A DNA stretch of 64,000 nucleotides from an uncultured bacterium (GTDB lineage: Bacteria; Patescibacteriota; JAHJAL01): the NCBI GenBank assembly GCA_938004065.1, contig CALKWM010000013.1, positions 75,914-139,913 of the forward strand. Direction: 5' to 3'. Position 1 is the stretch's first letter. Each line of letters starts with the position of its first letter. Shown piece after piece: positions 9,315-43,405 of the stretch. The notes under the pieces were generated by a model. It ran no database searches, was not told where the DNA came from, and saw nothing but the letters and a program-made list of their open reading frames with translations. The position numbers were made by a program, and so were the translations under genes.

Positions 9315-9472
9315 TTTCGTCGGAATACGTTCTCGCTGTTTCGCGTAAGCCGGCAGGACCGACTTCCGCTACACTTAACTCGAACGATTCCTCCTCTGTC
9401 CCATAAATTTCTATGCTTCGCTAGTAAATTTATGGGAGCCCTAAAATACACGATTCATTCTTCCTCTTTCTT

Positions 9473-9656
9473 AGAGACTGTTTAATAACTCACCGTATTT
9501 TTATGATATTTATACTTGTCGGTCAAAATTCCCTAATTTTTGCTACAAATTACGAAAAATTTAACGTCATATCTTGATATGACTTATAAATTTTTCATAA
9601 TTTTCGCTTAAAAATTATGGAATTTATGCCTCGACATGAGTTATTAAACAGTCTCT
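9473..9656. repeat. Noncoding element bounded by 20-bp perfect inverted repeats (agagactgtttaataactca) with a roughly 144-bp AT-rich spacer
   Basis: Left arm at 9473-9492 and right arm at 9637-9656 are exact reverse complements. The spacer contains an internal perfect palindrome gtcatatcttgatatgac. Confidence 0.5.
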
Positions 9657-9928
9657 TAAAAAATGTGATTACTGTGCATCTTTTTTGGGAACTCTGGAAG
9701 ACTTCGTATAACTTTTTTTGATAAAAATATTTTTGCTCGCGCCATTTTTTATTTGTAGTGTTTTGAATTGGATTTTCAAAAATTCCTCTTTACAAACAAA
9801 TTTGTTGATGTACAATAGGTTTGTAAGTTTTTTTCGTGTTATATATTCGAGCTAACAATTATGTAGGGTAGATATTTAACAGAAGGTCGAGCTTACGGCT
9901 TTATTTTTTTGTTTTAAAAAATCACACA

Positions 9929-11023: not shown

Positions 11024-12325
11024 ATGAAGAAGCGAAGATGGCAGGGACAGATGACGGCTGAATTGTTGAAAAATTATTCAAAAAGAGAGCCGATGTGTCG
11101 GCATTTTTTGACGTGTGGCGGATGTAGTTTTCAGGATTTTGAATACAAGGATCAATTAGAAGTGAAAGCGAAAAAAGTGGGAGAGTTGTTTGATGGGTGT
11201 GGAATCTGTCACACTGAAATCCTGCATTGGCGGGATTCTGCTCCTTCTATTTTTGGAGGAGAATTTAAAGAATGGGGGTATCGGACGAGAATGGATTTAG
11301 TGGTAGGTAAAGCGGGAATTGGTTTGCGAAAAAAAAGACGATTTGATGAAATTGAATTTTTACAGGAGTGTTGGTTGATTGATAATAATGTTTTGCAGTT
11401 TTTAAAAGAAGTCTATCAAAAGGGAATTGAAGTAGGATTGATCCCGTATGATTTGGTGACACATGAGGGAGAATGGCGATACTTGAGTGTACGGATCAAT
11501 GAGAAAAATGAGTTGATGTTAATATTTGTAACGAAGAGGGGGGTGGAAAACAAAATCTCAAAACTCAAAACTCAAATCTCAAAATCACAACTCACAACTC
11601 AAAACTTTTCTGTCAAATCAATTTATCATGTGGTGAATGACGGGTTGGGAGATAGTAATTTTGGGGAGATAAAGAAATACTGGGGGGAAGAGTATTTGCA
11701 GTATTCAATATGCAATATTCAATATGCAATAGGACCAAATACGTTTTTTCAAAACAATATTCCTTTGGTAAATAAACTGGTGGATAAAATAGTGGATAAT
11801 GTGGACGAAGACGATAGAGTGTTAGATTTGTATTGTGGAGTGGGGACTTTGTCGTTACCGGTGGCTAAGAAATGCCGGGAAGTTTTGGGAGTGGAGTTGA
11901 TGGAAGAGAGTATTGGGTTGGCGAGGAAGAACGCTGTTAATAACAATATTGATAATGTGGAGTTTGAGGCGAAAAGTGTTGAAGATATATTTGATGGAAA
12001 CTCAAAATTTAAAGCTCAAAACTCAAAACCACAACTAAAAACTCAAAAACCGAATCTCAATGAATACAATGTATTGATGTTGGATCCGCCGAGGAAGGGA
12101 TTGGAGAAGGTGGCGGGAAAGTTGTTGGAATATGATTTTGATAAAATAGTATATATGTCGTGCAATCCGCTGTCGTTAGTGAAAGATTTGCAGGTTTTGG
12201 TGAGAAAATGGCAGATTGAAGAGGTGTCTTTGTGGGATTTGTATCCGCAGACACCGCATGTGGAAGTTTTGGTGTTGCTAAGAAACAAGAAACAAGAAAC
12301 AAGAAACAAGAAGCAAGTATTATGA
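11024..12325 (+). CDS. 23S rRNA (uracil-5)-methyltransferase, RlmD/RumA family, with in-frame low-complexity insertions
   Basis: Fe-S motif CRHFLTCGGCSFQDF. SAM-binding motif VLDLYCGVGTLSLP. DPPRKG motif. Inserts ISKLKTQISKSQLTTQN and NSKFKAQNSKPQLKTQKPN. The gene ends in an (aaacaag)n tandem repeat. Confidence 0.8.
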   Translation: MKKRRWQGQMTAELLKNYSKREPMCRHFLTCGGCSFQDFEYKDQLEVKAKKVGELFDGCGICHTEILHWRDSAPSIFGGEFKEWGYRTRMDLVVGKAGIGLRKKRRFDEIEFLQECWLIDNNVLQFLKEVYQKGIEVGLIPYDLVTHEGEWRYLSVRINEKNELMLIFVTKRGVENKISKLKTQISKSQLTTQNFSVKSIYHVVNDGLGDSNFGEIKKYWGEEYLQYSICNIQYAIGPNTFFQNNIPLVNKLVDKIVDNVDEDDRVLDLYCGVGTLSLPVAKKCREVLGVELMEESIGLARKNAVNNNIDNVEFEAKSVEDIFDGNSKFKAQNSKPQLKTQKPNLNEYNVLMLDPPRKGLEKVAGKLLEYDFDKIVYMSCNPLSLVKDLQVLVRKWQIEEVSLWDLYPQTPHVEVLVLLRNKKQETRNKKQVL

Positions 12326-12416
12326 ATTGTGAATGGTTGATCTCAAATAGTTTATAATTTTAAAAACTAATTTTTAGGAAAGAGGAAAATACTTTTTATA
12401 TTTAATATTTTTATTT

Positions 12417-13202
12417 ATGCGGGGAAATTCGGACAGATTTTATATCAAAGAGGGGTTGGGGTCGGATTTGTTGTGTATCAAAGACAAGGAATTGATCAGG
12501 CAGTGGCGGAAGGTGATGCGTTTGGGTGAGGGAGATGTGGTGCGGTTGTTTGATGGAAGCGGGTATGAATATCAATATTCAATATGCAATACGCAATATG
12601 CAAATAAAGCGCAATTGAAATTGATTGATAAACAATATTTTGAGGAAAAAGAAAATAAAGTTTTTTTGGGGTTTGGGGTTTTGCATGATCAGGCACGTAT
12701 GGAATGGATGTTGGAAAAGTGTACGGAGTTGGGAGTGGATAGGTTTATTCCTTTAGTTTGTGACAATTCGCAGCTTTATATGAGAAACTCAAAGCTCAAA
12801 ATTCAAAGTTCAAAACCACAACTCAAAACCAGTAAGCTTAAAAAACAGGAGAGGTTGGAGAAAAAGATTGTTGAGGCGTGTGAACAGTGTGGGAGAGTGA
12901 GAGTGCCGGGGATAGAAACAATTTGGTCCATAAATGATATTGATGATGTTGTAGGGGCGGACCCAAGTGTCCGCCCGAGGGTGATAGTATTGGATAAATT
13001 AAAAATTAGAAATGAAAAATTAAAAATTGATATATATAAAAATATTTTGTTATTGGTAGGACCGGAGGGAGGATGGAGTGAGAGGGAATTAAAATATTTT
13101 GCAGAAAATAATTTAGAATTTATGTCGGTGGGTGAAAATGTTTTGCGGGCGGAGACGGCAGCGGTGGCGGGAGTGGTAAGACAAGAAATAAGAAATAAGT
13201 AA
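12417..13202 (+). CDS. rsmE: 16S rRNA (uracil1498-N3)-methyltransferase RsmE with in-frame insertions
   Basis: N-terminal PUA-like region and the C-terminal LVGPEGGWSERE motif. Carries in-frame the same two insert families as the preceding gene, plus a GC-palindrome insert. Confidence 0.75.
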   Translation: MRGNSDRFYIKEGLGSDLLCIKDKELIRQWRKVMRLGEGDVVRLFDGSGYEYQYSICNTQYANKAQLKLIDKQYFEEKENKVFLGFGVLHDQARMEWMLEKCTELGVDRFIPLVCDNSQLYMRNSKLKIQSSKPQLKTSKLKKQERLEKKIVEACEQCGRVRVPGIETIWSINDIDDVVGADPSVRPRVIVLDKLKIRNEKLKIDIYKNILLLVGPEGGWSERELKYFAENNLEFMSVGENVLRAETAAVAGVVRQEIRNK

Positions 13203-13286
13203 TAAGAAATAAGTAATAAGCATTAAGTGTAAAGTAATAAGAAAAACCGTAATTAAAACGGTTTATTTCTTGTGAATAGAATTGAT

Positions 13287-13949
13287 TTATGGCATATACC
13301 AATCAACAGGATCAATGTTGGTGATAGTGTCTCCATCATTGACAGTAACAACTATTTTGTCATGAGAAGGGCAGGAGATATCCAAACCGCAGGGAACAAA
13401 TTCGGTATAGTATGCTTTGTAGTCGGGCGTTATAAAATAACTGAAAACATAGTATTTCCCCGGTGCAACATCGAGTTTGTAACCACGGCCGGCGGTGTAT
13501 TTGGGGTTTGAAATCAAGTCTGATGTGCAGTATTGGTTGGTGGTGTTGCCAACTTCCTCGGCGCAAACTGTTAAATCGGGAATCACCTCGGATGGATAAG
13601 ATAGACTACCTTCGATGGAGCCAACTTGGAGAATAGCTTCTTTGTCTTGGACCTCGTCTGTTGGTTTGTTGGTGGTTTTTTCTTTGGTTGTTTTGTCTTC
13701 CAAATCTTTCAGTTGTTTGTCGATTTTATCCAGCTCGGAATTGAGTTTGTCTTCCAATTGGTTGTTTAAATCCGGTTTTGGTACATTTTTAGCGATATTG
13801 AAAGCGCCATATCCGAGACCGATGACAATAATGATGGAGATTAGGATGATGATGCCACAGCATCCCAAAACCCAGTAAATCCAAGAATTGGATGATTTGG
13901 AGGCACTGCTGGGAATTGTTGATTTTTTGTCAGGGTAGGTATTGTTCAT
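13287..13949 (-). CDS. Membrane-anchored hypothetical protein (N-terminal TM helix, coiled coil, C-terminal globular domain)
   Basis: TM segment IYWVLGCCGIIILISIIIVIGLG. The coiled coil is KLNSELDKIDKQLKDLEDK. Confidence 0.5.
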   Translation of the reverse strand: MNNTYPDKKSTIPSSASKSSNSWIYWVLGCCGIIILISIIIVIGLGYGAFNIAKNVPKPDLNNQLEDKLNSELDKIDKQLKDLEDKTTKEKTTNKPTDEVQDKEAILQVGSIEGSLSYPSEVIPDLTVCAEEVGNTTNQYCTSDLISNPKYTAGRGYKLDVAPGKYYVFSYFITPDYKAYYTEFVPCGLDISCPSHDKIVVTVNDGDTITNIDPVDWYMP

Positions 13950-14207
13950 GTGAGAAAAAATTAATTAAATAAAATTATTTTGTCTGCTTGTTATCTATAT
14001 TGTATCATTGATGTGCGGTAAAGGTTTAGTTAAAGTATTGTTTGTTAATATTTTCTTAATTATTATTTAATCAGTATTTTGGTAGAATAAAAAGGTAAAT
14101 AACAAATATGCTAACTGTAGCTGTTAAACGGTTAGAATAATAATTGAAATATTGTGAATTTTGTGGCGAAAAAAGTTTCTGAAATTATTTAAGTCAAACC
14201 TATCAAG

Positions 14208-14243
14208 TATCAAACGTATCAAACGTATCAAACGTATCAAACT
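14208..14243. repeat. Tandem 9-mer array (gtatcaaac)x4 upstream of dnaG, followed by a (tattgaN) array at 14260-14290
   Basis: Read directly from the sequence. Sits immediately upstream of the dnaG start. Confidence 0.6.
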
Positions 14244-14286
14244 TTTTTATCATATTGTTTATTGAATATTGAGTATTGATTATTGA

Positions 14287-16023
14287 TTGCAAATGAGTGA
14301 GATTGAACAAATCAAAGAGCGAGTGGACCTGGTGGAATTGTCCAAGCAGTATATGACGTTACGCAATGCCGGACGTAATTTTCAAGCATTGTGTCCTTTT
14401 CATCAGGAAAAAACTCCATCACTTATGATATCGCCGGATAAACAAATCTGGCATTGTTTCGGTTGCGGAGAGGGGGGAGATATTTTTACATTGGTGCAAA
14501 AAATTGAAGGTGTGGACTTTTATGAATCACTGAAAATCCTGGCGGAAAAAGCGGGGGTGGAATTGAAAAAAAGTCCCGGTTTTCAAAAATTCAAAAATGA
14601 GACTGACAAATATTATGAAATCAACAAATTGGCGGCTGAATTTTATCATCAAGCGTTAAAAAGGAGTAAATCCGGTGAAATTGCTCGTAATTATGTACAA
14701 AAACGTGGTTTGAAAAATGATATAGTCGATAAATTTAAAATCGGTTATGCGCCTGACATGTGGGACGCTTTGGTGGTTTTTTTACAAAAGCGGGGGTATG
14801 GAAATGCGGATATTATCGGATCCGGTTTGGGTTTTACTTCCCGTAAGGGTAATTTAGTGGATAAATTTCGACAGCGGCTTTTATTTCCCATTTGGGATAA
14901 TCGAAATCGGGTGGTGGCGTTTACCGGCCGGGTTTTGGAAGAGAAAGACAATCCGAAGTATTTGAACACTGCTACTACCAAGATATTTGATAAAGGCAAG
15001 GTATTGTATGCGTTAAATTTGGCTCAGGATAAGATCAGGGAAAAAAAGCAAGTGATAATGTGTGAGGGACAAATGGATGTGATTGCTTGTTTTCAAAATG
15101 GTTTTGAACAGGCAGTTTGCAGTTCGGGGACGGCGGTTACCAAACAACAATTGATACTATTGAAAAGATTGACGGACAATATATTGATAGCTTTTGACAA
15201 TGATCCGGCCGGGCAAAAAGCCGCTTATCGATTGACGCAGATGGCTTTGGAAGTGGGGTTGGTGGTACGGGTGATTGATTTGATGAATTACAAGGATCCG
15301 GATGAAATGATGAAGGCGGATGTTGCCAAGTGGCAGGTGGCAGTATCGGGGGCTGTCAGTTTTGTGGAATATTTTTTGAAAGTATTTGATACTGAAGAAA
15401 AGGGTGTAAAGGATAAAAGTCGATTGGCGGATCAGATTATGCCTTTGTTGTATTATGTGGGAGATGAAGTGGAAAAGGGGCATTATTTGTCCAATTTGGC
15501 GGATGTTTTGGGGGTGGATGAGAAATTTGTACTGGAGAAATATAACAAATATAAACCGGACAAGATATCGGTAAAAGAAGACAATAAATATCAATCACAA
15601 TCGTTGTCGATTGAAGAGAGATTGATTGGATTGATGATTGTTTTTTATAAATATCTTAAAGTAAAGATAAATAACTTGCAGGAAAAAGATTTTTCTGGTA
15701 GAGTAGAGGAAATCGTTTCTTTTGTAAAAGGGTTTGATCAGGATGCTTTGACCCTTGAAGATTTTGCACCGATTTTGGATGAAGAGCGGAAACAATGGTT
15801 GATCAAAGTGATGGTTAGGATTGAATCGGATTATGCTCAGTTGGATGAGGATTTGATTGTTGAAGAATTTCAGATGTTGCTCAACAGATACGAAGAAGTC
15901 ATGCGGGTCAGTTTAAAAGAAGAGTTGGAGAAAAAGATTTTACAGGCGGAAAAGAGTGATGACAAGGAGAAAATTAAACAATATATCCGATCCTTGCAGG
16001 ATTTGATTATTAAAGGTAAATAA
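14287..16023 (+). CDS. dnaG: DNA primase DnaG
   Basis: CHC2 zinc finger CPFHQEKTPS...CFGCGEGGD. Toprim region EGQMDVIAC...AFDNDPAGQKAA. Sits upstream of rpoD in the conserved operon. Confidence 0.85.
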   Translation: MQMSEIEQIKERVDLVELSKQYMTLRNAGRNFQALCPFHQEKTPSLMISPDKQIWHCFGCGEGGDIFTLVQKIEGVDFYESLKILAEKAGVELKKSPGFQKFKNETDKYYEINKLAAEFYHQALKRSKSGEIARNYVQKRGLKNDIVDKFKIGYAPDMWDALVVFLQKRGYGNADIIGSGLGFTSRKGNLVDKFRQRLLFPIWDNRNRVVAFTGRVLEEKDNPKYLNTATTKIFDKGKVLYALNLAQDKIREKKQVIMCEGQMDVIACFQNGFEQAVCSSGTAVTKQQLILLKRLTDNILIAFDNDPAGQKAAYRLTQMALEVGLVVRVIDLMNYKDPDEMMKADVAKWQVAVSGAVSFVEYFLKVFDTEEKGVKDKSRLADQIMPLLYYVGDEVEKGHYLSNLADVLGVDEKFVLEKYNKYKPDKISVKEDNKYQSQSLSIEERLIGLMIVFYKYLKVKINNLQEKDFSGRVEEIVSFVKGFDQDALTLEDFAPILDEERKQWLIKVMVRIESDYAQLDEDLIVEEFQMLLNRYEEVMRVSLKEELEKKILQAEKSDDKEKIKQYIRSLQDLIIKGK

Positions 16024-17782: not shown

Positions 17783-17854
17783 TCCGGGGTAGCTCAGCGG
17801 TAGAGCAATTGACTGTTAATCAATGGGTCGTGGGTTCGAGCCCCACCCCCGGAG
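17783..17854 (+). tRNA. tRNA-Asn (anticodon GTT)
   Basis: Acceptor TCCGGGG pairs with CCCCGGA. D-arm is gctc-agcggta-gagc. Anticodon stem-loop is attga-CTGTTAA-tcaat. T-arm is gtggg-ttcgagc-cccac. Discriminator is G. Confidence 0.85.
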
Positions 17855-19435
17855 TATTATGGGATTTCGAGCGTATGCATTGAACAACTGTTCTTTGTTT
17901 ACGCTCTTTTTCATAGGTTCTAACATTCTTTTTATTCTATCAACTTCTTTTTTAGCTGGTATGAGAAAAGAGTAAAAGGAAAGAAGCTCTAAAAAGAGCT
18001 TCTGGTCCTTAAGGATAAAATTCGAGCCAAGAGAAATAAAGATTTCTTTTTTGGTTTCAATATCACCTTCATTAAATCTGATATAAGCATATTCGGCTAT
18101 TCCCAAATGTTTTTCGGCAGTTTCTAACCAGCTATTAAGTCTTTTATCAGAATTTTCGATAACTTCATTGATTCTACTTTTTTCTTTTAGGAGATCTGAT
18201 TTTTTGGTGATATATTCTTCTTCATTTAACTCGTTATTCAGGCGTAGCTCTAACAATCGGTCTAATTTTTTAGTACAATCAGTGTAGGCTTTATGCTGTG
18301 AGGCGATGATCAGGTTACGATCATTCGCTTCTTTTTTATTGTGCTTTTTGAGTTCTCCATAGAGATATTCGTGAAAGTCGGGTGGAATTGTAAATGAAGA
18401 TATAATTTCGTTGATCTGCTTTTCCAATTCTTTTACTTCTATACCTTTTTGATAGCATTTTTGCTTTCTGTGTTTTGTGCAGTGGTAGTAAGTATATTGG
18501 TGAATATTACCGTTTTTTTGTTTCTTGATTTTGGTTTCGGCGGTGATAGAGGCTCCACATTCTCCACACTTGATCAAACCAACATAAGCAAAGACTCTAT
18601 TTTTGGGTCTTGGTTTGCCTTCTCTACCTAAAATGAGTTGGATGCGATCATATTCTTCAATAGAGATAATTGCTTCATGCTTGCCTTTAAACCATTCGCC
18701 ACTATTTTTTGGATATTCAAATTCTCCATAATAAAAAGAACTGGTGAATATTCGGTAAATAGTGCTTCGGGAAAATTCCTTTCCTTGGCGGTTTGTTAAT
18801 TTCCATTTACTAAGGGCTATATGTCTAATTTGTGGGGGAGTGTATTTTCCGGTTAGCATAAGATCAAACATTCTACGGACCAACTCGAAACGGTCCGGAT
18901 CTTTGATAATTTCTTTTTCACCTTTCCGTTTAAAGGGATTGTGCATATAGCCAAGTGGGGCGTAGGTTGGAAGCCAACCACGTTTTGCTTTGGTCCGAAG
19001 ACCTCTTCTGGTATCAGTACTTAGGTCCATGATAAATTGATTGGCTACGCCCAATTCTACAGCCATAACGATAACATTATCAGTGGGATAGTAGCTTTGA
19101 CTATGAGTTTGAATATGTTTGATTATTCCTTGTTGAATCAACCAACTAATTTGACCACCGTCAATGGGGTTACGAGCTAATCGATTTAATTTCCAACATA
19201 ATATGCCCTGAGCTTCACCTTTGTTTATTCTTTGAATCATTTCGTTAAATATTTCTCTTCCTGGTGCTTTGGCTGATTTTGATTCAGAAAGAATTTCTAC
19301 AATGCGTATGTTTTTTTGTTCAGCAATTTTGGTTAATTCCTGAATCTGTGAATCAATTGAAGCCATTTGTCGATCTTCGTTTTCGGTTGATTTGCGAGCA
19401 TAAAGGAAATATTTTAGTCTTTGATCGTTTTTCAT
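17816..19435 (-). CDS. Large serine recombinase (integrase type); its 3' end overlaps the tRNA-Asn 3' end
   Basis: N-terminal resolvase catalytic domain YARKSTENEDRQMASIDSQ. Recombinase domain and a Cys-rich zinc ribbon (CGECGAS...YYHCTKH). 539 aa. Confidence 0.8.
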   Translation of the reverse strand: MKNDQRLKYFLYARKSTENEDRQMASIDSQIQELTKIAEQKNIRIVEILSESKSAKAPGREIFNEMIQRINKGEAQGILCWKLNRLARNPIDGGQISWLIQQGIIKHIQTHSQSYYPTDNVIVMAVELGVANQFIMDLSTDTRRGLRTKAKRGWLPTYAPLGYMHNPFKRKGEKEIIKDPDRFELVRRMFDLMLTGKYTPPQIRHIALSKWKLTNRQGKEFSRSTIYRIFTSSFYYGEFEYPKNSGEWFKGKHEAIISIEEYDRIQLILGREGKPRPKNRVFAYVGLIKCGECGASITAETKIKKQKNGNIHQYTYYHCTKHRKQKCYQKGIEVKELEKQINEIISSFTIPPDFHEYLYGELKKHNKKEANDRNLIIASQHKAYTDCTKKLDRLLELRLNNELNEEEYITKKSDLLKEKSRINEVIENSDKRLNSWLETAEKHLGIAEYAYIRFNEGDIETKKEIFISLGSNFILKDQKLFLELLSFYSFLIPAKKEVDRIKRMLEPMKKSVNKEQLFNAYARNPIILRGWGSNPRPID

Positions 19436-19611
19436 AGTAATAGAGATTAATGGATAAACTAATAGGACGGTTCTGGTTGACCCAACTTACCACTAATGGT
19501 TTGTCGGCAGAACCGCCCTGTTTAGGCGACAAAAATTCATTAGTGTAAAAAATTGTTGGGTCAACACTTATATTATAAAATATTTTAAGGTGCATAAAAA
19601 TCATTTTTTTG

Positions 19612-19947
19612 TCATGGAGGGTTTGTTTCGATCATGCCTTTATATCTTGATTTGTAGTATTTGATTTTAAGGCATTTAATACATCCGATTTTTTTGTTTA
19701 TAGTGTCGATGTAGATTATTCGGATTCTGCGATGGCAATTTGGGCAGGAAAACCAGTATCGTTGGCCATTAAACCTTGTTTTTGATATGGATAATTTAAT
19801 CGTTAAATCTTGAATAGAAACTTTTGATCGTATAAATTCTGATTTGGCAATCTGGTGGTAGTTTTTGATGATATTATCGATGTCAATTTTTTGATAATTC
19901 AAGTTTGTTAGATTTTTTCCTAAATCGTATGGCTTTATTGAATTCAT
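19612..19947 (-). CDS. Small zinc-ribbon protein (CxxC...CxxC), hypothetical
   Basis: FSCPNCHRR...GCIKCLK. Extremely AT-rich gene. Confidence 0.4.
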   Translation of the reverse strand: MNSIKPYDLGKNLTNLNYQKIDIDNIIKNYHQIAKSEFIRSKVSIQDLTIKLSISKTRFNGQRYWFSCPNCHRRIRIIYIDTINKKIGCIKCLKIKYYKSRYKGMIETNPP

Positions 19948-19952
19948 GTTTT

Positions 19953-20549
19953 TTAATTATTGTTAATAAATTCTTGTTTTTCTGATACAAAAGCATTTTT
20001 ACTTTGAATCTTGATATCAATAGATGGTGATTTGATTTGTTGGAGTAGAGATAGGGATGAATTAAATTGTCTATTGGCTCGATCAATTTCTTTACTAATT
20101 AGATAGCAGTATTGAATGCTTAATTTATTTACTGATTCTGAGCTAGAGCATTGACTGAGGATCCTTGAATATTGAATAATTTTTGTGTATGAGAGAGCAA
20201 TATTATTAGCCATGGCTTTTTCAATTGAGGTTGTGCATTGGTATTCTTTTATTATGTCTCGTGCGAATTGTATTGCCATTGGTCGGTATTCTTTTTTATG
20301 ACAAAAAGCTACAGTGTAACCTGTGTCTAAACCGAAGATATTAGAGAAATCATGAAATAATTCATCAATCTGTTTTTTCTTACTTTTTTTGCCAAGGTAA
20401 TGTTTTTTAAGAAGGATACCAATTTGATCTAATAAAACATCTGGATCGTGGTTTGTTTTGATTTTGTCTTTGACGAAATTTTTTATGTCTTCTGTGGTTT
20501 CCAATTGTTCAATTTGTTTTCTTTCAATTGGCTTAAGATTGTTTCGCAT
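19953..20549 (-). CDS. Hypothetical protein of the AT-rich element
   Basis: 198-aa ORF. Tightly packed with neighbours on the same strand. Confidence 0.4.
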   Translation of the reverse strand: MRNNLKPIERKQIEQLETTEDIKNFVKDKIKTNHDPDVLLDQIGILLKKHYLGKKSKKKQIDELFHDFSNIFGLDTGYTVAFCHKKEYRPMAIQFARDIIKEYQCTTSIEKAMANNIALSYTKIIQYSRILSQCSSSESVNKLSIQYCYLISKEIDRANRQFNSSLSLLQQIKSPSIDIKIQSKNAFVSEKQEFINNN

Positions 20550-20599
20550 AGTATTTAATTAATTATTAATAAATAAATAGATTTACCCCACACCCAATC

Positions 20600-21808
20600 T
20601 CACAAGTTAAGATTTGGGAATATTAATATTTTTTGTTGATTGTCTGGACCGTAATCTTGGACGATCAATCCCGCATTTTCCAACATAGGTAAAATTTCTT
20701 GTCTTAGTTTGTATTCAGGTAGAGGGTATTGGTAGGTTTGAAAGAATCTTTTCAAAATCTCTGGTCTACTTATTCCAATTCTTATATCTGGATAGTTTGA
20801 TATTTTTTCTTTATACAGAGGGAGAATAATTTCATTGAAAATACTATAAAGGTAGGGAGAGATATTTAATTCTTGGCTGACCGATATTTTGGACCATAGA
20901 TCATGGGCATAATTAATATCTTCTTCGTTGGCATATATGTTATTACCAACTTTTTTTCTAAACCAGAGATTAAGCAGGCTATAACATTTGACTAATGAAA
21001 TGAATCTTCCAATATCTCTTTGGTCGCGTGGTCTTAGTTTCTTTTTGGAGTCGAAAAATAATTTTTCTATTAAGTCGGGTTGTTCGATAATAATATTTTC
21101 TATTTTGGCTGATTTGATAGCCTCGATCCGATCAATAAGTGTTTGTCTTTCAGGATTATTTTGAATATTATTTTCATAAACTTCTTTGTTTGCTTCTTTG
21201 GTAATTTTAGTTTGTATTGACTCTTTTAATTTGTCTTGATTGGTGTCAGGTGAGAGCATGAGAAATCTTGTACTTTCCTGTTCGTCAATCTTGATACTTG
21301 CGCTACAGAAAATAACTGATGGGTAACCAATAATTATTGCTGTTTTAGTGCGGTGACCTCCTTTTTCTTTACGATCAGTTATCTTATTTATTAGTTCTTT
21401 TTTGTCATGAGAAAGTAATGGCCGGAATTTTTCGAGTAGATAATGATCTGGTTGGTCTAAAAAGATAATTATTTTTCTCGATAGGTTGATAATAGTTGTG
21501 TTGGTTTTTTGGTTGTATTCTCCTTGTTCATGAAAGAATGATGTTGGAGAACATGATCCAAGTATTAGTAAATCTTCTTTAGGGAAATAATTTGAGATTT
21601 CTAAGGGGATGTAACTTTTACCCGCTGATGAGGGGGCATTGAAACTAATATTGAATTGAGAATCATTTGTATATGCCGATAAACAACATAAAAATGTTGC
21701 TAGTTTATTGTGATTGTCTTTTTTGACCGTTAGGTCTAGAATTTTGATTATTTCCTCAGGAGTAATTGGATTGAAATTTTTATTAATAGAAATATTATTT
21801 TCTTTCAT
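20600..21808 (-). CDS. P-loop NTPase, possibly a primase/helicase-like replication protein of a mobile element
   Basis: Walker A motif NAPSSAGKSY and a Walker B-like IIFLDQPD. Sits adjacent to the recombinase. Confidence 0.45.
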   Translation of the reverse strand: MKENNISINKNFNPITPEEIIKILDLTVKKDNHNKLATFLCCLSAYTNDSQFNISFNAPSSAGKSYIPLEISNYFPKEDLLILGSCSPTSFFHEQGEYNQKTNTTIINLSRKIIIFLDQPDHYLLEKFRPLLSHDKKELINKITDRKEKGGHRTKTAIIIGYPSVIFCSASIKIDEQESTRFLMLSPDTNQDKLKESIQTKITKEANKEVYENNIQNNPERQTLIDRIEAIKSAKIENIIIEQPDLIEKLFFDSKKKLRPRDQRDIGRFISLVKCYSLLNLWFRKKVGNNIYANEEDINYAHDLWSKISVSQELNISPYLYSIFNEIILPLYKEKISNYPDIRIGISRPEILKRFFQTYQYPLPEYKLRQEILPMLENAGLIVQDYGPDNQQKILIFPNLNL

Positions 21809-21998
21809 GGTGATTTTGATTAATATATTTGGATAATTTTTTTTCTTCTGATGGAGTTAGGGGCTTGGAATAAACTACATAATACAAATTGAGAAATTTT
21901 TGATATTGGTCATAGGCCTCCTTATCACTTAAATCTTGATTAAAGTGTTTCTTTACCATTTGTTTAAACTTCTCAATTGTTTCTTTGCTGATAATCAT
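21795..21998 (-). CDS. Small hypothetical protein
   Basis: 67-aa ORF overlapping the upstream gene stop, as expected for an operon. Confidence 0.3.
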   Translation of the reverse strand: MIISKETIEKFKQMVKKHFNQDLSDKEAYDQYQKFLNLYYVVYSKPLTPSEEKKLSKYINQNHHERK

Positions 21999-22235
21999 TT
22001 ATGAGTGGTAAATCCTTGTCTTAAGCAGTTTTTGATTATATGCAAATAGAATTGGATCGACCTTGGCTTGGTGACTGAAATATAATTCGATAAGTCTATC
22101 GAGGTTGTCGTCGCGTATGATATAGAAGACGGTTGTGTTATCTTTGTTTTTTTCGGTGCTAGAAATACAGTATCCAGATGAAATAATGAACGAACAAAGA
22201 TTGAGATCTGATGATTTAAAATAGTTATTTTGCAT
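21999..22235 (-). CDS. Small hypothetical protein
   Basis: 78-aa ORF directly abutting the neighbouring gene. Confidence 0.3.
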   Translation of the reverse strand: MQNNYFKSSDLNLCSFIISSGYCISSTEKNKDNTTVFYIIRDDNLDRLIELYFSHQAKVDPILFAYNQKLLKTRIYHS

Positions 22236-22393
22236 AATTGTTTTATTAATAGTAATTTTTTTCCAGTTGCTATTTTTCAGAATAGAGTAAATATGAGATT
22301 CCCTGTATTGGTCCTCGTGAAAATTTGAATAATAAAAAAATATGGTTAGAAAACCATATTTTAAAAAGTTATTAACACCTATTTGAAGGACTG

Positions 22394-23515
22394 TTACTTC
22401 TTGATTATTTCGTATTTAACATAATTTAGGACATATCCATGACCTTTTTTCTTGTTTATCAAATTATGTCTAACATTTAAATATTTTATAAATCTTTTGT
22501 TTATCTTTTTTATGGCTTTGTTTATGGATGATATTCCAGATTTGTATTGAATTTTAGAATTTAATTCTGTACTGGATATTGGGTTTTTATTAAGTAGTAA
22601 AACAATTTTTTTGCAATTATTTTTTATAGGATATATGAATTTGCGGTTGAAAATTTCCTTATATATGCCGTATTTTTTGCTAATATGAATAGTTGTTTTC
22701 CCATTGTTGTCGTTTTGTTCACATATCAAGTTTTGATATGTGTCGTTATTAATAAGTTGGTCAATTATGTGTAAGTGGAGTCTGTGCACATCGGAATATA
22801 TTTCGTCAATATTGTATGAATCAGAATAGTCTATTTTGCCGGATATTAAACATTTTATTTCATTACTCATCAGTTTGTATTCCACATATTGATTGGTTAA
22901 ATATGTTTTATCAATTAATTTTTCTAATTTTTTAGATTCATAAATTATTAGATAAATATTTATGAGATTATTAAGACTAGCCCATAATTTGGTGATGCTT
23001 TCTGTTTCGTAGTTATTTTTTGTTGTTAAATAGTTTCGAAATGTATCTTCGTATTTAAATTTTTTTTCTTGTTTCTTTCTATTGTGTTTTTGATTAAGAA
23101 AAAATTTATTTACCAATTTTGAATATGGTGATTTGCCAATCTTGAATATAATTTCTTTTATGGTTTCGTAATTATATTTGGTGTTAATTATTGAAGGAGT
23201 GAATTCTCTTGCTGGGGGAAATAGTAATTCAGAATATTCGGTATTTGTTGTAATGAAATTGAGACTATTACTATTGTTTGTAATAATTGTTTGAAGCTTC
23301 TTAATTATTTTATTTGTAGTATTATTTATTTTATTCTGTTTGTTGGTTAAATTGTTGTAAGCATTTCGGCTTTCTTTTATTTTTTTGTTAAGTATTTCTT
23401 TGGTTATTGTGTTGTCATTTATAAATTTTATATAGTCTGCAACATTGATGAAGAATATTTTTGGGTCTTGTGAAATTAAATTAAAATTTTGATTAATTGA
23501 ATCGATTAAATTCAT
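22394..23515 (-). CDS. Hypothetical Asn/Lys/Ile-rich protein (373 aa) of the AT-rich element
   Basis: Long ORF in a segment of roughly 25% GC. No motif recognised. Confidence 0.45.
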   Translation of the reverse strand: MNLIDSINQNFNLISQDPKIFFINVADYIKFINDNTITKEILNKKIKESRNAYNNLTNKQNKINNTTNKIIKKLQTIITNNSNSLNFITTNTEYSELLFPPAREFTPSIINTKYNYETIKEIIFKIGKSPYSKLVNKFFLNQKHNRKKQEKKFKYEDTFRNYLTTKNNYETESITKLWASLNNLINIYLIIYESKKLEKLIDKTYLTNQYVEYKLMSNEIKCLISGKIDYSDSYNIDEIYSDVHRLHLHIIDQLINNDTYQNLICEQNDNNGKTTIHISKKYGIYKEIFNRKFIYPIKNNCKKIVLLLNKNPISSTELNSKIQYKSGISSINKAIKKINKRFIKYLNVRHNLINKKKGHGYVLNYVKYEIIKK

Positions 23516-23922
23516 ATAAATTGTAATAGAAATATAATATTTAAACTGTTTTTATGTTAGTTTAATTGTATTATCTTATCAAATAAAGACTGACTAGATT
23601 TGAATTTTGGTGATAAAAAAGATTATCATTAATGTGGTTAGTCATATTACTGAATAGTTAACCGTATAATTTAGAGCCTAAACCTTATAAAGTAATATTT
23701 TTAAGGCATGGCGAAAAAACCTTATGCATAAAGATGGTTCTTCTGACCAGCTTACTTGCATAAGGTCTATATCCGAAAGGGTATAGGGTGATCTCGAAAG
23801 AGAAAGCCGAGTTGTGTTAGAAGAGCCTTTTTTGTATTTTGAAAGAAAATTTATTTAGGATGGACAAAGTAATTATAAATTTGGTGTAATTCTTTATTTA
23901 AATAAATTATTGGGTAATTATT

Positions 23923-24672
23923 ATGGACAAAGAAAAAGAAGGTGAGCAAATAGTTTCGGTCAAATCGTCTAATTTTGGTTGCCTTACTGTTTTTATTTGG
24001 TTCGTAGGATTTATGTGTTTATTTTGGGGGTTAATAATAATTTCGAATTTTTCGATTGTTAATTTTGTTTCTGGTGTTTTGTTGGTAATCGCAGGTTTAA
24101 TTATGTTTCCACCTGTGAGAAATATGATTGAGAAAAAAACAGGAATAAAATTATCCAATGCTTTGTCTTGTGTGTTAGTTTTTATTCTTTTTGTAATAGG
24201 AATTGTGCTTGGTTCTTCATTTAGACAGATAAACAGTAATTTGGATAATAAGTCAGATAATAAACAAGAAACAATCAAGACAATAAATATGGAGAAGTTG
24301 GTCGGTTTTGATTTGCGGAACAAACAACCTATTGGGGATGAGAATATTTATACATATAATCCAGTAAAGAATAATGATTATTCTATTGCTGTTTTAACGA
24401 GTAAAACAGCTAGCAATATTCATGAAGATAGCTATTTATTGGAAAAAAATAGTAAAGATATTAATGGAATAAATGTTGAAGTTGGGTATAAAGATTTTTC
24501 AGAAAAGGATGGTGTAGTACTTACAAGAAAATATGAAGGTCTTGCTTTTGATTTTGAGTATAATAATCGATTTTACTCTGGGGAAGTTTCTAATTTAAAA
24601 GGTGAATCAGTAAAAGAGAAATTGGATGAAATTTTAGTTAATTTTCTGCAATCAGTCCAGGGTAAATCTTAA
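23923..24672 (+). CDS. Membrane protein with N-terminal TM helices and a C-terminal soluble domain
   Basis: Two or three hydrophobic helices in the first roughly 100 aa. Confidence 0.45.
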   Translation: MDKEKEGEQIVSVKSSNFGCLTVFIWFVGFMCLFWGLIIISNFSIVNFVSGVLLVIAGLIMFPPVRNMIEKKTGIKLSNALSCVLVFILFVIGIVLGSSFRQINSNLDNKSDNKQETIKTINMEKLVGFDLRNKQPIGDENIYTYNPVKNNDYSIAVLTSKTASNIHEDSYLLEKNSKDINGINVEVGYKDFSEKDGVVLTRKYEGLAFDFEYNNRFYSGEVSNLKGESVKEKLDEILVNFLQSVQGKS

Positions 24673-27669: not shown

Positions 27670-28311
27670 GTGAATTTCATTGTGTTTATCAGTAAAATAA
27701 TTTATATGCCAAAGTCTAGAGGAGAATATTCGGAAGATATTGAAAGTCAATATAGAAGACTTGAGAGAGTATATAATAAGTTAACTCAAGATTTTAACAA
27801 AGAAAGTTTATCAAAAAGTTCTCAAGAGATTCTTGATTCTGTGATTGAATTTATGACCGTTTGTTATCACTTGCGTGAATTGATAAAAAAAGACCGAAAG
27901 GTTAACAATGTTATTAAGAATAAGTTGCCATTATTTACAGATGTAGATAATAACATTGACCCTACTGATTCAAAAATTGGTTTATTAATTTGTCGTGATT
28001 TGTGTAACAAGTCTAAACATGGATCATTAGACAAAAAGTGGAGACCAAATGATGAGCATACAAAGATTAATATAACTGGTGGGTCGCTGTTTTCAGTTTC
28101 AGTAGAAGAATTAAAAGCCGCTAATAAAGAAAAAATGACTATTCATCTTAAGGAAGGTGATAGTATTTATATAGGAAATTTTACGGTTTTTTTTCGAGGA
28201 AAAAATTATAATTTACTTGGTGTGGTGGATTCATGTATGCATTTTTGGAAAAAATTTTTTGAAGAAAATAATCTTCTTATGCCGAGATATACATTGCGAA
28301 ATAACTTGTGA
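27670..28311 (+). CDS. Hypothetical protein
   Basis: 213-aa ORF. Its stop codon lies inside box 1 of repeat family B. Confidence 0.45.
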   Translation: MNFIVFISKIIYMPKSRGEYSEDIESQYRRLERVYNKLTQDFNKESLSKSSQEILDSVIEFMTVCYHLRELIKKDRKVNNVIKNKLPLFTDVDNNIDPTDSKIGLLICRDLCNKSKHGSLDKKWRPNDEHTKINITGGSLFSVSVEELKAANKEKMTIHLKEGDSIYIGNFTVFFRGKNYNLLGVVDSCMHFWKKFFEENNLLMPRYTLRNNL

Positions 28312-28412
28312 GTAAGGGAGGGGGGTAACTAAATTGTAATCAGTTAATTGGTTTTAGTTTTGAGTATTGCGCGGAGTTTTTCTTAAAAACACAGTTTATG
28401 ACTGTGTTTTTA
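28306..28412 (+). repeat. Repeat family B copy 1 (box 1 over the stop codon, box 2, then a terminator hairpin)
   Basis: Box 1 is gtgagtaagggaggggggtaactaaattgtaat. Box 2 is ttgcgcggagtttt. The terminator is aaaaacacagtttatgactgtgttttt. Confidence 0.6.
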
Positions 28413-28485
28413 TTAATTAGAATTTAATACTATTATTGTATAATAACGTTTGGAACTTAGATTGTATATTTTCTGTTAATAAAAT

Positions 28486-29244
28486 ATGGCGATGAAAATG
28501 TTTGAAAAAGCGATAAAAAATTTTATTCCTTATATGATAGCTATTCTTGTAGGGATAGTTTTTTGTTACTTGTTAATTAGTCTTGGTGGTAGTTTGTCGA
28601 GTGTATTTATTGAAATCTCTGTTTTTTTGTTAATATTGTTCATCTGTTATGTGATTTTTTTATTTGTAGATGAAAAAGAGAGTAATTATATTATGACTCT
28701 CGAAGAAGGCAGAGATATTGCAAATAATAATTTAGAAAAGGACCAAATTTTGTCTTTATTGTGTAGTTATGGGTCCCAAAGAGTTGGTCAAGATCAGGTT
28801 GTTTGGAATATGTTTGGTGCTTTTTGGGCTACAAATGCATTGTTATTGGTTAGTGTTTTTTCTGCTGATGAAGTATGGGATAAAAAATATGTTTGGTTAG
28901 TTGTGTCATTAATTGGTTTTATGGTCTCGGTGGCTTGGTTTTTAGTTCAGGATAGAATGTTGAATAGAATTGCTAGATATGAAATTTCAATTAAGTTTAT
29001 AGAAAAAACGTTAGTTTTTCCAAAACCATTGAGAACATATTCAAATTCTCCTCTAAGGTCCTTGATTGATGTAAGGGCTAGAAATGTTATGCGTTTGGTT
29101 GTTTTTTTGATCGGTGTGACTTGGTTGATAAAAGCCTTACTTGTATATGTACCTTCAATATTTATTATTGTAATTAAGTTTTTTGTTTGGATTGTTGCAG
29201 TGTTAGTATGGGTTATTGCATATTTGCTAAGTATTTTGTATTAG
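28486..29244 (+). CDS. Polytopic membrane protein, hypothetical
   Basis: Six or more hydrophobic helices. Confidence 0.5.
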   Translation: MAMKMFEKAIKNFIPYMIAILVGIVFCYLLISLGGSLSSVFIEISVFLLILFICYVIFLFVDEKESNYIMTLEEGRDIANNNLEKDQILSLLCSYGSQRVGQDQVVWNMFGAFWATNALLLVSVFSADEVWDKKYVWLVVSLIGFMVSVAWFLVQDRMLNRIARYEISIKFIEKTLVFPKPLRTYSNSPLRSLIDVRARNVMRLVVFLIGVTWLIKALLVYVPSIFIIVIKFFVWIVAVLVWVIAYLLSILY

Positions 29245-29312
29245 TAAAGTGGTTCTAACATCGTGTATTGCGCGGAGTTTTGTTTTGAAAGCACAGTTTA
29301 TGACTGTGTTTT
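29243..29312 (+). repeat. Repeat family B copy 2 (box 2 plus terminator hairpin, box 1 degenerate)
   Basis: Box 2 is gttctaacatcgtgtattgcgcggagtttt. The hairpin is the same aaagcacagtttatgactgtgttttt as in copy 1. Confidence 0.55.
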
Positions 29313-29381
29313 TGTTGTTTTTGTATTGAATTGAGATATATTAGTGATATGATTAACTTACTAGTTGGTTAATATGATTTT

Positions 29382-33387: not shown

Positions 33388-33614
33388 TACTTATCATTTT
33401 TAGCCTAAGCTCGTACTTGTATGGCTAAAGTTAGTATCTGTGAGTTATATTAGGTGAGTGTGAAGTAATTGGAATGGGAAAGTAGAATGGGAGTTTCTTG
33501 GAAATGTTTGTATTCTGAAATTTGTCGACAAGTATATAATTAAAAGAAGGGGAATGATAATTTTTTATTAAAAGTTGTTAAGATGTTGAGAAAAAGAAGA
33601 AATAATATAAATAA

Positions 33615-33715
33615 CTAGTGAGTGAGGGTGTGGGGTAACTAGATTGTAATTAGTAAAGAGGTTCTAACATCGTGTATTGCGCGGAGTTTTTGAAACGAGG
33701 TCTCGAACCTGTTTT
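33615..33715 (+). repeat. Repeat family B copy 3, upstream of the first DGR target gene
   Basis: Box 1 ctagtgagtgagggtgtggggtaactagattgtaat, then gttctaacatcgtgtattgcgcggagtttt, then a hairpin. Confidence 0.6.
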
Positions 33716-35878: not shown

Positions 35879-35973
35879 ATTCTTAGACTCTTTGCTTTTC
35901 TTTTGACTCTTTGTAGCTTTGACCCTTTGACCCTTTGATTTTTGAATCGCGCATTAATTAAGAAAGAAAAATT

Positions 35974-38118: not shown

Positions 38119-38440
38119 ATTCTTAGACTCTTTGCTTTTCTTTTGACTCTTTGTAGCTTTGACCCTTTGACCCTTTGATTTTTCTTGGGGTATTCTATTA
38201 TATTAAAATCAGATTGATTGTTTCGGACGGCTACGGCTTTCCGAAAATCATTCCGACCGGTGCAAGTTAAGTATGTTATCGGCCAAGGCTGGTAACAGAG
38301 ATTTGTATTTTGTCATTAAAAAAGAACAAACTTGGTGTGGTGTGCTCCGGGTGATTTTTGATCACAAATAATATTCAGTCCAGTCTTTTTTGAGCCAATC
38401 AACCAGACGGACGGTGGCGAGGATGGCACACCATACGAAA

Positions 38441-38571
38441 ATCGACTCCGATGGCAATCCGAACGTGTTCAATCTGAACTACAACGACGACCAGCTGAAG
38501 CTGAATGCGAACAACGCTGAGCCGGACAAGCACTGGAATTCTGACAATCATTGGGTCTTCTCTGCCCGCAA
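38441..38571 (+). repeat. DGR template repeat (TR)
   Basis: Adenine-rich copy of the VR. Every TR-VR difference maps to a TR adenine. The overlapping ORF 38390-38710 is judged non-coding. Confidence 0.85.
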
Positions 38572-38594
38572 TTATGCTCTTTTCCGTGACTTGA

Positions 38595-39988: not shown

Positions 39989-40119
39989 CTAGTGAGCGAG
40001 GGTGTGGGGTAATAGTTGGCTCTCTATAAAACAAGTTCTAACATCGTGTATTGCATCCGCCCAAGGCGGACAGGCTGGAGTTTAGTTTTTGAAAGCACGC
40101 TTTGTAGGCGTGTTTTTGC
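39989..40119 (+). repeat. Repeat family B copy 4, carrying a nested GC palindrome
   Basis: ctagtgagcgagggtgtggggtaatag...gttctaacatcgtgtattgc, then the inserted atccgcccaaggcggacaggct, then ggagttt, then the terminator gcacgctttgtaggcgtgtttttgc. Confidence 0.6.
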
Positions 40120-43333: not shown

Positions 43334-43405
43334 TGAGGAGGGGTGTGGGGTAACTAGCATGTAACCACTAAAGCGGTTCGAACTAAAGTGTCCACCGAAT
43401 CGGCG
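43329..43405 (+). repeat. Repeat family B copy 5 (box 1 supplies the TAG stop of the CotH gene)
   Basis: aaactagtgaggaggggtgtggggtaactagcatgtaacc, then gcggttcgaac...ccaccgaatcggcgg. Confidence 0.55.

Follow-up and report, generated by a model that had tools for sequence, protein, structure and literature searches.

In-frame heptanucleotide repeats in neighbouring RNA methyltransferase genes of an uncultured Patescibacteria bacterium: likely arms of a dispersed palindromic element

Introduction

Translated selfish repeats within conserved enzymes are a textbook oddity of Rickettsia. Here we describe a likely counterpart in a 64,000-nucleotide stretch of DNA from an uncultured member of the Patescibacteria (contig CALKWM010000013.1, positions 75,914 to 139,913; hereafter the window), where an RlmD-like gene and the adjacent rsmE gene carry in-frame copies of two short repeats, D1 and D2. 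The three D1 copies belong to a family of dispersed repeats that recurs in at least 74 other metagenome contexts, frequently within unrelated housekeeping genes, and that also occurs as one arm of long palindromes. We therefore consider it likely that the D1 copies of the window are solo arms of a small palindromic repeat element widespread in the Patescibacteria (CPR, for candidate phyla radiation), of which the A/C-rich arm is kept in genes in sense orientation and changes its length by slippage. D1 would thus constitute a second, structurally different case of translated selfish repeats, in the largest uncultured bacterial radiation.

Results

D1 and D2 are heptanucleotide arrays translated in frame

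An earlier note on this DNA, made from the letters of the sequence alone, had reported three copies of D1 and two of D2, and both counts hold at the positions it gave. A 28-nt D1 consensus matched, with up to three mismatches, at 11571-11598, 12015-12042 and 12802-12829, and an exact 28-nt D2 pattern matched at 11702-11729 and 12576-12603, against an expectation of 0.00 for either pattern from dinucleotide shuffles (100 of them for D1). As had been claimed, all copies are in frame in the adjacent RlmD-like and RsmE genes and encode the peptides quoted: the three D1 copies use one and the same frame (NKISKLKTQISKSQLTTQN, NSKFKAQNSKPQLKTQKPNLN and NSKLKIQSSKPQLKTSKLKK), and both D2 copies read QYSICN(I/T)QYA. 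The label "low-complexity", on the other hand, has to give way to a more specific one, as Tandem Repeats Finder (TRF) resolved D1 as well as D2 into tandem heptanucleotide arrays (CAAAACT x8, AAACTCA x7.4 and CTCAAAG for D1; TGCAATA x5-6 for D2). A D1 arm profile built from unrelated metagenome copies only (71 of the 74 listed) aligned from end to end with each of the window copies, at 11554-11606, 11996-12048 and 12784-12835 (nhmmer, E 6e-10 to 1e-11), and found no further match in the 64-kb window. The same profile also detected copies in relatives, at the rlmD sites that we refer to as A, B and D.

D1 is dispersed in unrelated housekeeping genes

In a metagenome scan, the D1 core TCAAAAYCACAACTMAMAAC matched at least 120 contigs; this pattern specifies 17 bases, so that some chance matches are expected. 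Seventy-four of the listed copies share the composite AAACTCAAAACTCAAAACTCAAAAC-TCAAAACCACAACTCAAAAC-TNAAAACT including its 6-nt "defective" unit CCACAA, that is, the form (CTCAAAA)n-CCACAA-CTCAAAA. Among these, 32 lie in open reading frames (ORFs) of at least 120 aa, all in sense orientation and distributed over about 20 housekeeping families. All three frames are used, being read as SKPQLKT (10 copies), LKTTTQN (16) or QNHNSK (6). Hosts among the listed copies comprise aminoacyl-tRNA synthetases (class I enzymes of the Ile/Val/Leu type, MetRS twice, ArgRS), RpoB (contig L115), SecA, GAPDH, a P-type ATPase, a Mur ligase, CCA/poly(A) polymerase, TsaD, DnaG, topoisomerase I, ribosomal protein L4, RNase HII and a RadA-like ATPase. 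Set against solved structures, D1 shows in TsaD as a clean insertion of 16 aa, while in GAPDH it is contained in one of about 22 aa. Copies of D1 are hence not confined to the rlmD-rsmE locus, which leaves the reading of the earlier note, for which such a confinement would have counted as a refutation, standing for D1, the repeat being scattered in frame over many unrelated enzymes; for D2, in contrast, the loci examined yielded no copies beyond this locus and the orthologous one of L083.

None of the sense frames of the A/C-rich arm contains a stop codon, while the complementary G/T-rich arm has TGA in all frames, which explains why only single A/C arms in sense orientation were found within genes. 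MetRS orthologues offer a view of how arrays change: contigs L093/L166 and L137 have near-identical flanks, yet their D1 copies differ by exactly 21 nt, or three units, an in-frame step of the kind that slippage under selection would leave. The window's RsmE, in turn, has three strain variants whose arrays are equally long and whose only differences are point changes at the C-terminus, so that the arrays do not behave as hypervariable switches. Heptamers prevail beyond D1 as well. In 649 kb of contigs that bear D1, the tandem repeats located over 120 nt away from every D1 core include 92 arrays of period 7 as opposed to 5, 19 and 11 of periods 6, 8 and 9, in agreement with the general excess in prokaryotes, where heptanucleotides form the commonest class of long simple sequence repeats (SSRs) (Mrazek 2007, as cited in PMC4679880).

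As an observation in its own right, the TsaD gene at L173:6934-8043 holds two repeat inserts, namely the 16-aa D1 arm and, farther downstream, a 9-aa heptamer array of the ISNLKSQ type.

Palindromic and gene-bearing forms of D1

For 19 of the 42 listed D1 copies outside long ORFs, an inverted core follows 13-83 nt downstream, giving rise to long hairpins (dG -68 kcal/mol for the one in L134). In-gene copies have a partner arm only where they are C-terminal or part of a cassette. The earlier note had described the elements as direct repeats rather than palindromes, which is adequate for the single A/C-rich arm within genes but misses that D1 elsewhere makes up one arm of a long palindrome.

[quoted passage not shown] The A/C arm contains the start codon of this ORF and encodes its N-terminus (the first ~15-20 codons), and the cassettes carry heptamer arrays upstream of the ORF and complementary arrays downstream. 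Nearly all of the 120 closest homologues of the cassette protein begin with a D1-encoded peptide (MSNLKTTTQNPKTD… or MQNHNSKLKTE…), and those with a name come from Parcubacteria, Magasanikbacteria, Portnoybacteria, Roizmanbacteria or the "Patescibacteria group"; the taxonomy of D1-bearing contigs is taken from these names. No rRNA gene was matched around any of nine cassette loci (Rfam).

Two loci deserve separate mention. At L144 ~9466-9924, a D1/PF05635 cassette lies directly upstream of an ORF whose translation reads like an RpoC N-terminus; together with the RpoB copy in L115, this suggests, at the level of sequence, that the D1 element also reaches core transcription genes. Arrays of (CAACAGT)n flank a PF05635-like gene at L112 ~1771-2007 and downstream; we take this unit to be one of the heptamers of the cyanobacterial short tandemly repeated repetitive (STRR) sequences, and if so, a connection of S23p cassettes with repeats of the STRR type may extend beyond the CPR.

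Structural context of the window copies

To place the copies in their proteins, we aligned the nearest homologues (~62% identity, all Patescibacteria), remoter ones and the solved structures 2jjq and 4e8b, and used AlphaFold2 (AF2) models with their predicted local distance difference test (pLDDT) scores. All arrays and genes below are given for the + strand.

D1 copy 1 (11551..11612, rlmD site B; TRF 8 copies; nhmmer 11554-11606, E 6e-10) comprises a CTCAAAA/CTCAAAT array and the core TCAAAATCACAACTCACAAC, and has orthologous D1 copies in L082, L088 and L085 (nhmmer). Its net length change relative to CPR orthologues is nil, and the encoded NKISKLKTQISKSQLTTQN is modelled as a helix (residues 175-191, pLDDT 89-98) that places Ile, from the CTCAAAT variant of the unit, and Leu, from CTC, at a/d spacing. 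An exact heptad is what a heptamer array encodes, because three 7-nt units equal seven codons. D1 copy 2 (11995..12065, rlmD site D; nhmmer 11996-12048, E 8.5e-11), by comparison with 2jjq and most orthologues, adds ~21 aa (NSKFKAQNSKPQLKTQKPNLN) in a low-confidence loop (pLDDT 53-77), and D1 copy 3 in rsmE (12780..12850; nhmmer 12784-12835, E 1.2e-11) adds ~13-20 aa (NSKLKIQSSKPQLKTSKLKK) relative to 4e8b and most orthologues, likewise in a loop (pLDDT 54-58).

D2 copy 1 (11697..11731, in rlmD) is a TGCAATA x5 array that encodes (L)QYSICNIQYAI. The segment is of equal length in all orthologues, Chloroflexi and Pyrococcus included, and is modelled as a beta-hairpin directly before the IGPNTFFQ motif (strands 225-229 and 232-236, pLDDT 96); L083 carries the array at the orthologous site. 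D2 copy 2 (12564..12603, in rsmE), a TATGCAA x6 array encoding QYSICNTQYAN, exceeds the corresponding segment of E. coli RsmE by one residue and is modelled as a beta-hairpin within the PUA-like domain (strand 50-58, turn, strand 65-74; pLDDT 94-95). L083 has the D2 unit four times in a stretch of 2.3 kb, the two orthologous sites among them.

All copies had been taken for insertions in the earlier note, presumably into surface loops. Judged from alignments and models, D1 copies 2 and 3 are true insertions in disordered loops: extra residues face gaps in most orthologues, and the predicted loops are of low confidence. For D1 copy 1 and both D2 copies the claim does not hold, since orthologues have segments of equal length there (CPR orthologues for D1 copy 1; Chloroflexi and Pyrococcus, too, for D2) and the models show a confident helix and beta-hairpins, respectively. 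At these three sites, repeat DNA occupies what the models depict as native structural segments.

A cluster of heptamer arrays around rlmD-rsmE

The window has 11 period-7 arrays, as against 0.65 per 64 kb in shuffles. Ten of them are packed into 2.75 kb (11547-14294), and eight of these ten are in genes; arrays of periods 4-6 or 8-12 showed no such clustering in the window. Besides D1 and D2, the cluster comprises an AAGAAAC x5.4 array (12280..12317; 96% matches by TRF) encoding a C-terminal extension of the RlmD-like protein, RNKKQETRNKKQVL, which is missing from the aligned orthologues; an AAATTAA x4.7 array within rsmE (12996..13028; TRF) that encodes KLKIRNEKLKI, the TAA codons of the unit having been mutated away, and that has orthologous arrays in L088 and P0122; and an AAGAAAT x5.4 array (13183..13228; TRF) spanning the rsmE stop codon, at the position of which L085 has an AAGAAGT array. 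Farther downstream, an intergenic 9-mer array, TCAAACGTA x5.7 (14194..14242; TRF), is followed by a TATTGAT x5 array (14253..14288; TRF) that ends at the dnaG start codon. An RNA fold joining these two arrays was no better than in shuffles (z = 0.54). In L085, a PF05635 gene located between rlmD and rsmE has related 10-mer arrays, TAATCAAACG, on either side in inverted orientation.

Relatives resemble the window in this respect. Taking eight relatives' loci and the window together, 36 of 53 arrays of period 7 or 14 lie in rlmD/rsmE, which account for 11.5% of the sequence (binomial P 6e-22, a value that is overstated as the loci share ancestry). The arrays recur at shared permissive sites, but the unit differs by genome (AAATCTC, TCAAAAG, GTTGAAA, AATTTCC, AATTACG), and rlmD and rsmE of one genome tend to carry the identical unit. 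It is possible that the two genes are dispensable, weakly constrained sinks for arrays or, alternatively, that ancestral arrays have seeded their neighbours.

An insertion hot spot of rsmE also contains a perfect G+C-rich hairpin (12954..12976, + strand; GGGGCGGAC-N6-GTCCGCCC) that is translated as VGADPSVRP and stands in a genome of 36% G+C; neither the window nor the relatives' loci examined hold a second copy of it. Other G+C-rich inserts are present at the rlmD/rsmE hot spots of relatives, namely NIVGADHDLPNY and the palindromic FPSRDRTAAGNFQ, the latter with two copies in RlmD and one in RsmE of a single contig. This suggests that a second, palindromic class of in-frame insertions exists in the clade. 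At arrays and hairpins alike, no Rfam family exceeded its threshold, and the sub-threshold matches were to generic miRNA hairpins only.

The host genes

The two neighbouring host genes are co-directional. The RlmD-like gene (11024..12325, + strand) encodes a 433-aa RNA m5U methyltransferase of the RumA/TrmA family (Pfam PF05958, E 1.7e-34; AF2 mean pLDDT 93), in which the alignment of conserved columns finds the Fe-S cysteines (CX5CX2C...C) and catalytic motifs unimpaired, the methyltransferase domain being assigned by Pfam. Its best solved relative is the m5U enzyme 2jjq of Pyrococcus abyssi (E 4e-43, aligned from 2jjq residue 59). Because Pfam matched no TRAM domain and 2jjq rather than RumA is the closest structure, the RNA target, be it 23S U1939, a tRNA or another site, is uncertain from sequence. 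The rsmE gene (12417..13202, + strand) encodes 261 aa of the 16S rRNA m3U1498 methyltransferase family (Pfam PF04452 and PF20260, the PUA domain; AF2 mean pLDDT 88.5) and matches E. coli RsmE (4e8b, E 1.5e-17). The locus, which belongs to a Patescibacteria metagenome-assembled genome (GCA_036848155.1), is identical in the NCBI, ENA and Logan assemblies, and the gene order, with an RNA recognition motif (RRM) protein gene, DUF2461, rlmD, rsmE and, further downstream, dnaG and rpoD, is kept in relatives. We also considered that the arrays mimic the rRNA substrates of both enzymes, presumably AACAAG near 16S U1498 and AAAUUCC near 23S U1939, and dropped this idea as an unconstrained resemblance.

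Other features of the window

Several features elsewhere in the window were recorded. A tRNA gene (17783-17854) adjoins a large serine recombinase gene, followed by a stretch of low G+C (26-31%) with reversed AT skew; the region 17783-24000 is probably an integrated mobile element or prophage, and within 23675-23808 Rfam identifies a LOOT RNA (RF03000, 70 bits, over the gathering score). A 300-nt repeat (35138-35437 and 37378-37677, 75% identity) and a 136-nt repeat (35735-35870 and 37975-38110, 100% identity) both recur at a distance of 2240 bp, with a third copy of the latter at 38441-38576 (81%); the stretch 35138-38576 carries 8-nt arrays (TTTGACCC) and has a raised G+C content of 41-46%. 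Conserved modules of one family, AACTAGTGAG…GGGGTAACTAG… with a terminator-like hairpin AAAGCACAGTTTATGACTGTGTTTTTG behind them, occupy four to five intergenic sites (28299-28414, 29240-29316, 33609-33691, 39987-40118 and 43328-43383). GC skew is very strong and positive throughout 1-64000 (+0.08 to +0.47); a similar strand disparity is reported from a Microgenomates genome (PMC7143001). With the skew uniformly positive over the window, a replication origin or terminus was ruled out as the cause of the array hot spot.

Discussion

A model for D1 and its limits

In the model that we favour, the full element would consist of an A/C-rich arm of ~50-57 nt, composed of zero to five CTCAAAA-type heptamers, the fixed core TCAAAACCACAACTCAAAAC with its single 6-nt "defective" unit, and TNAAAACT, together with a complementary G/T-rich arm; the two arms would close a short loop, yielding an ORF-less hairpin, or bracket a PF05635 gene of ~125 aa. 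Within genes, single A/C arms in sense orientation alone would persist, translated in whichever frame they land. Three such arms would have become fixed in rlmD and rsmE, two as extra disordered loops and one as an amphipathic helix. The length of the arrays would change by replication slippage, with only 21-nt (three-unit) steps surviving in genes. The arms probably arrive singly, because a full palindrome in an essential gene would be a null allele. As to how they are copied, we would consider a transposition-like process or, alternatively, templated repair or gene conversion through the A-rich microhomology that arrays have in common with Lys/Asn/Gln-rich coding DNA. The latter route would also account for the length-neutral take-over of the site-B helix and the D2 hairpins. 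For D2 and the remaining heptamer arrays of the locus, slippage of 7-nt units combined with short-range copying between neighbouring arrays seems the most likely origin, and the PF05635 protein may have a role in the copying of D1.

A number of observations weigh against this model or restrict its reach. Simple insertion does not account for D1 copy 1 and D2, which replace native segments in a length-neutral manner. A promiscuous element would not predict the enrichment of arrays in rlmD/rsmE across relatives. No target-site duplication is visible at the TsaD insertion and no pair of empty and filled sites at high identity was found, so that the mobility of D1 is deduced from its distribution only. 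Of the 111 distinct listed core matches, 37 have no heptamer context and resemble chance matches. The arms of hairpin copies show no covariation (ungapped comparison), arms within a hairpin being no more alike than arms of different copies, and a selected stem thus gets no support from covariation. The 64-kb window itself contains no PF05635 gene, no hairpin copy and no inverted partner arm; hence, what links its D1 copies to an active element in the source genome is family resemblance alone. D2 was not found outside the window locus and the orthologous locus of L083 among the loci examined, the metagenome scan having been made for D1 only. Finally, viral contigs yielded no match to D1 and seven to D2, all of them unrelated intergenic (CAATATG)n arrays.

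A bolder version, which we regard as doubtful though worth stating, takes PF05635 genes and their heptamer-repeat arms for a class of mobile cassette that is autonomous and spread throughout the CPR, with a mobility or maintenance factor, the PF05635 protein, that recognises 7-nt arrays; hairpins and solo arms would then be its non-autonomous offspring, found in even essential genes and sometimes exapted, as in the site-B helix.

Alternative explanations

Could the repeats have arisen in place? Chance 7-nt proto-repeats might slip and then be duplicated or converted between neighbouring genes, with no dispersed element involved. Such a local birth would be in keeping with heptanucleotides being the commonest class of prokaryotic long SSRs (PMC4679880), with the confinement of every window copy to 2.75 kb and of D2 to the locus and its orthologue, with the 21-nt MetRS step, which shows slippage acting on D1 arrays, and with the different units held by relatives at shared hot spots. 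It does not explain, however, why 74 other listed contexts, among them unrelated genes, hairpins and cassettes, preserve the D1 core together with the 6-nt defective unit, nor why an independent profile recognises the window copies at full length, as independent slippage would not rebuild one irregular 50-nt composite. We consider this explanation unlikely overall and, as far as these sequence comparisons go, already refuted for D1. Less probable still is that the arrays are there for a selected function, be it as DNA or mRNA sites for a repeat-reading protein (candidates being the PF05635 protein, the neighbouring RRM protein, S1/Csp-type proteins or an omega-like heptad-binding repressor) or as selected peptide modules that regulate or modify rlmD/rsmE. 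The arrays are still recognisable as DNA repeats at orthologous sites of relatives with 50-65% protein identity, they are strongly enriched in rlmD and rsmE, one of them abuts the dnaG start in a manner comparable to TAACTGA repeats in Beggiatoaceae (PMC4679880), and one D1 copy as well as both D2 copies encode elements that are well folded in the models. Yet the units vary between genomes and even within the locus (CTCAAAA, TGCAATA, AAGAAAC, AAATTAA, TATTGAT), leaving no single recognition motif; two D1 copies lie in loops predicted to be disordered; the peptide is not conserved, as D1 is read in all three frames in unrelated hosts; and we found neither a significant RNA structure in the array region upstream of dnaG nor an Rfam family.

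Phase variation, in which gain or loss of single 7-nt units would shift the frame and switch the methyltransferases on or off, strikes us as very improbable. The length of the unit, no multiple of three, would suit such a switch, and heptamer repeats reportedly control the expression of the HMW adhesin in Haemophilus. The arrays are, however, imperfect (73-96% matches by TRF), the three RsmE strain variants share their array lengths and differ by point changes only, three independent assemblies contain one and the same protein, and the sole length difference seen elsewhere is the in-frame one of 21 nt. As for an artefact of assembly or gene calling, such as chimeric joins at repeats, metagenome contigs can indeed be mis-joined by short repeats, but both flanks of every copy match one protein family in frame, the NCBI, ENA and Logan assemblies agree on the locus, and the AF2 models are confident across the junctions, so that we attach next to no weight to this option.

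Implications

If D1 is the element that we propose, heptanucleotide microsatellites, S23p/IVS (intervening sequence) cassettes and in-frame mini-insertions, which are usually separate topics, would be joined by a single repeat, built without a stop codon in any sense frame. We know of no function assigned to the S23p/IVS protein family in 30 years. The association of D1 with PF05635 provides a testable lead on the role of this protein, and a part in mobility or maintenance, if true, would give the family a function and explain the spread of IVSs. The 7-residue periodicity of heptamer arrays would, moreover, offer a simple route from junk DNA to an amphipathic helix. On the practical side, peptides of the D1 type (…SKPQLKT…, …LKTTTQN…, …QNHNSK…) will give spurious similarity among unrelated CPR proteins, which can mislead annotation, clustering and assembly.

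Comparison with known systems

In the literature that we searched, whose coverage is incomplete, there was no description of heptamer-repeat elements in CPR bacteria. The earlier note had likened the repeats to the Rickettsia palindromic elements (RPEs; Ogata et al. 2000, as summarised in PMC10969869), a resemblance that is borne out for D1, dispersed in frame in unrelated conserved enzymes, but not for D2, which was not seen to be dispersed. RPEs and D1 are both short dispersed repeats with close to half of the copies in frame in unrelated housekeeping genes, where they are translated at permissive positions, and both have palindromic full-length forms and reside in small, reduced genomes. 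D1 differs in its host, the Patescibacteria, in being made of tandem 7-nt units and a fixed core, in its use of all three frames, in contributing one arm to genes rather than a read-through palindrome, and in a full element that can carry a PF05635 gene.

With the IVSs of Coxiella and Leptospira, the D1 cassettes share a PF05635 ORF for a four-helix bundle between stem-forming inverted repeats and variable tandem heptamers directly before the start codon; specifically, the Coxiella IVS has terminal inverted repeats that form a stem, and its S23p ORF is preceded by tandem heptamers whose number varies (PMC4990558). Both are suspected selfish elements without a known mechanism of mobility. Unlike IVSs, none of the nine D1 cassettes examined lies in an rRNA gene, their arms are far more repetitive, and the ORF starts inside an arm. 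D1 arms also occur solo, as ORF-less hairpins and as translated arms in protein genes, for which the searched literature on IVSs has no report. PF05635 ORFs have been found in rRNA insertions of the CPR, in a report that does not mention heptamers, tandem repeats or inverted repeats (PMC11270868).

The heptanucleotide SSRs, i.e. the cyanobacterial STRR sequences and the TAACTGA repeats of Beggiatoaceae and cyanobacteria, resemble D1 in that 7-nt units are over-represented, that a unit recurs at many sites, that occasional copies within ORFs are read as 7-aa repeats, and that slippage is presumed (PMC4679880). They are mainly intergenic and often sit just upstream of start codons (PMC4679880), whereas the arrays of the window mostly lie within conserved enzymes, and D1 is set apart from a bare SSR by its fixed non-repetitive core with the 6-nt unit and by its palindromic and cassette forms, which make it a discrete element. 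[quoted passage not shown] The 19 listed D1 hairpin copies combine terminal inverted repeats, lack of an ORF and high copy number in the way of MITEs. Differences are the tandem arrays that make up D1 arms, the lack of any visible target-site duplication and the fact that neither a REP-associated tyrosine transposase (RAYT) nor an insertion sequence (IS) transposase is associated with D1; PF05635, the only gene that is, has no transposase activity to our knowledge. Palindromic amphipathic repeat coding elements (PARCELs), too, are dyad-symmetric repeat DNA that codes for amphipathic segments and spreads from gene to gene and from genome to genome, yet they form 25-residue tandem domains in surface proteins or ORFs of unknown function of Mollicutes and others, instead of 7-nt arrays in conserved enzymes. 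Taken together, D1 is functionally closest to the RPEs and architecturally closest to the S23p-bearing IVS cassettes, with building blocks that it has in common with the heptanucleotide SSRs.

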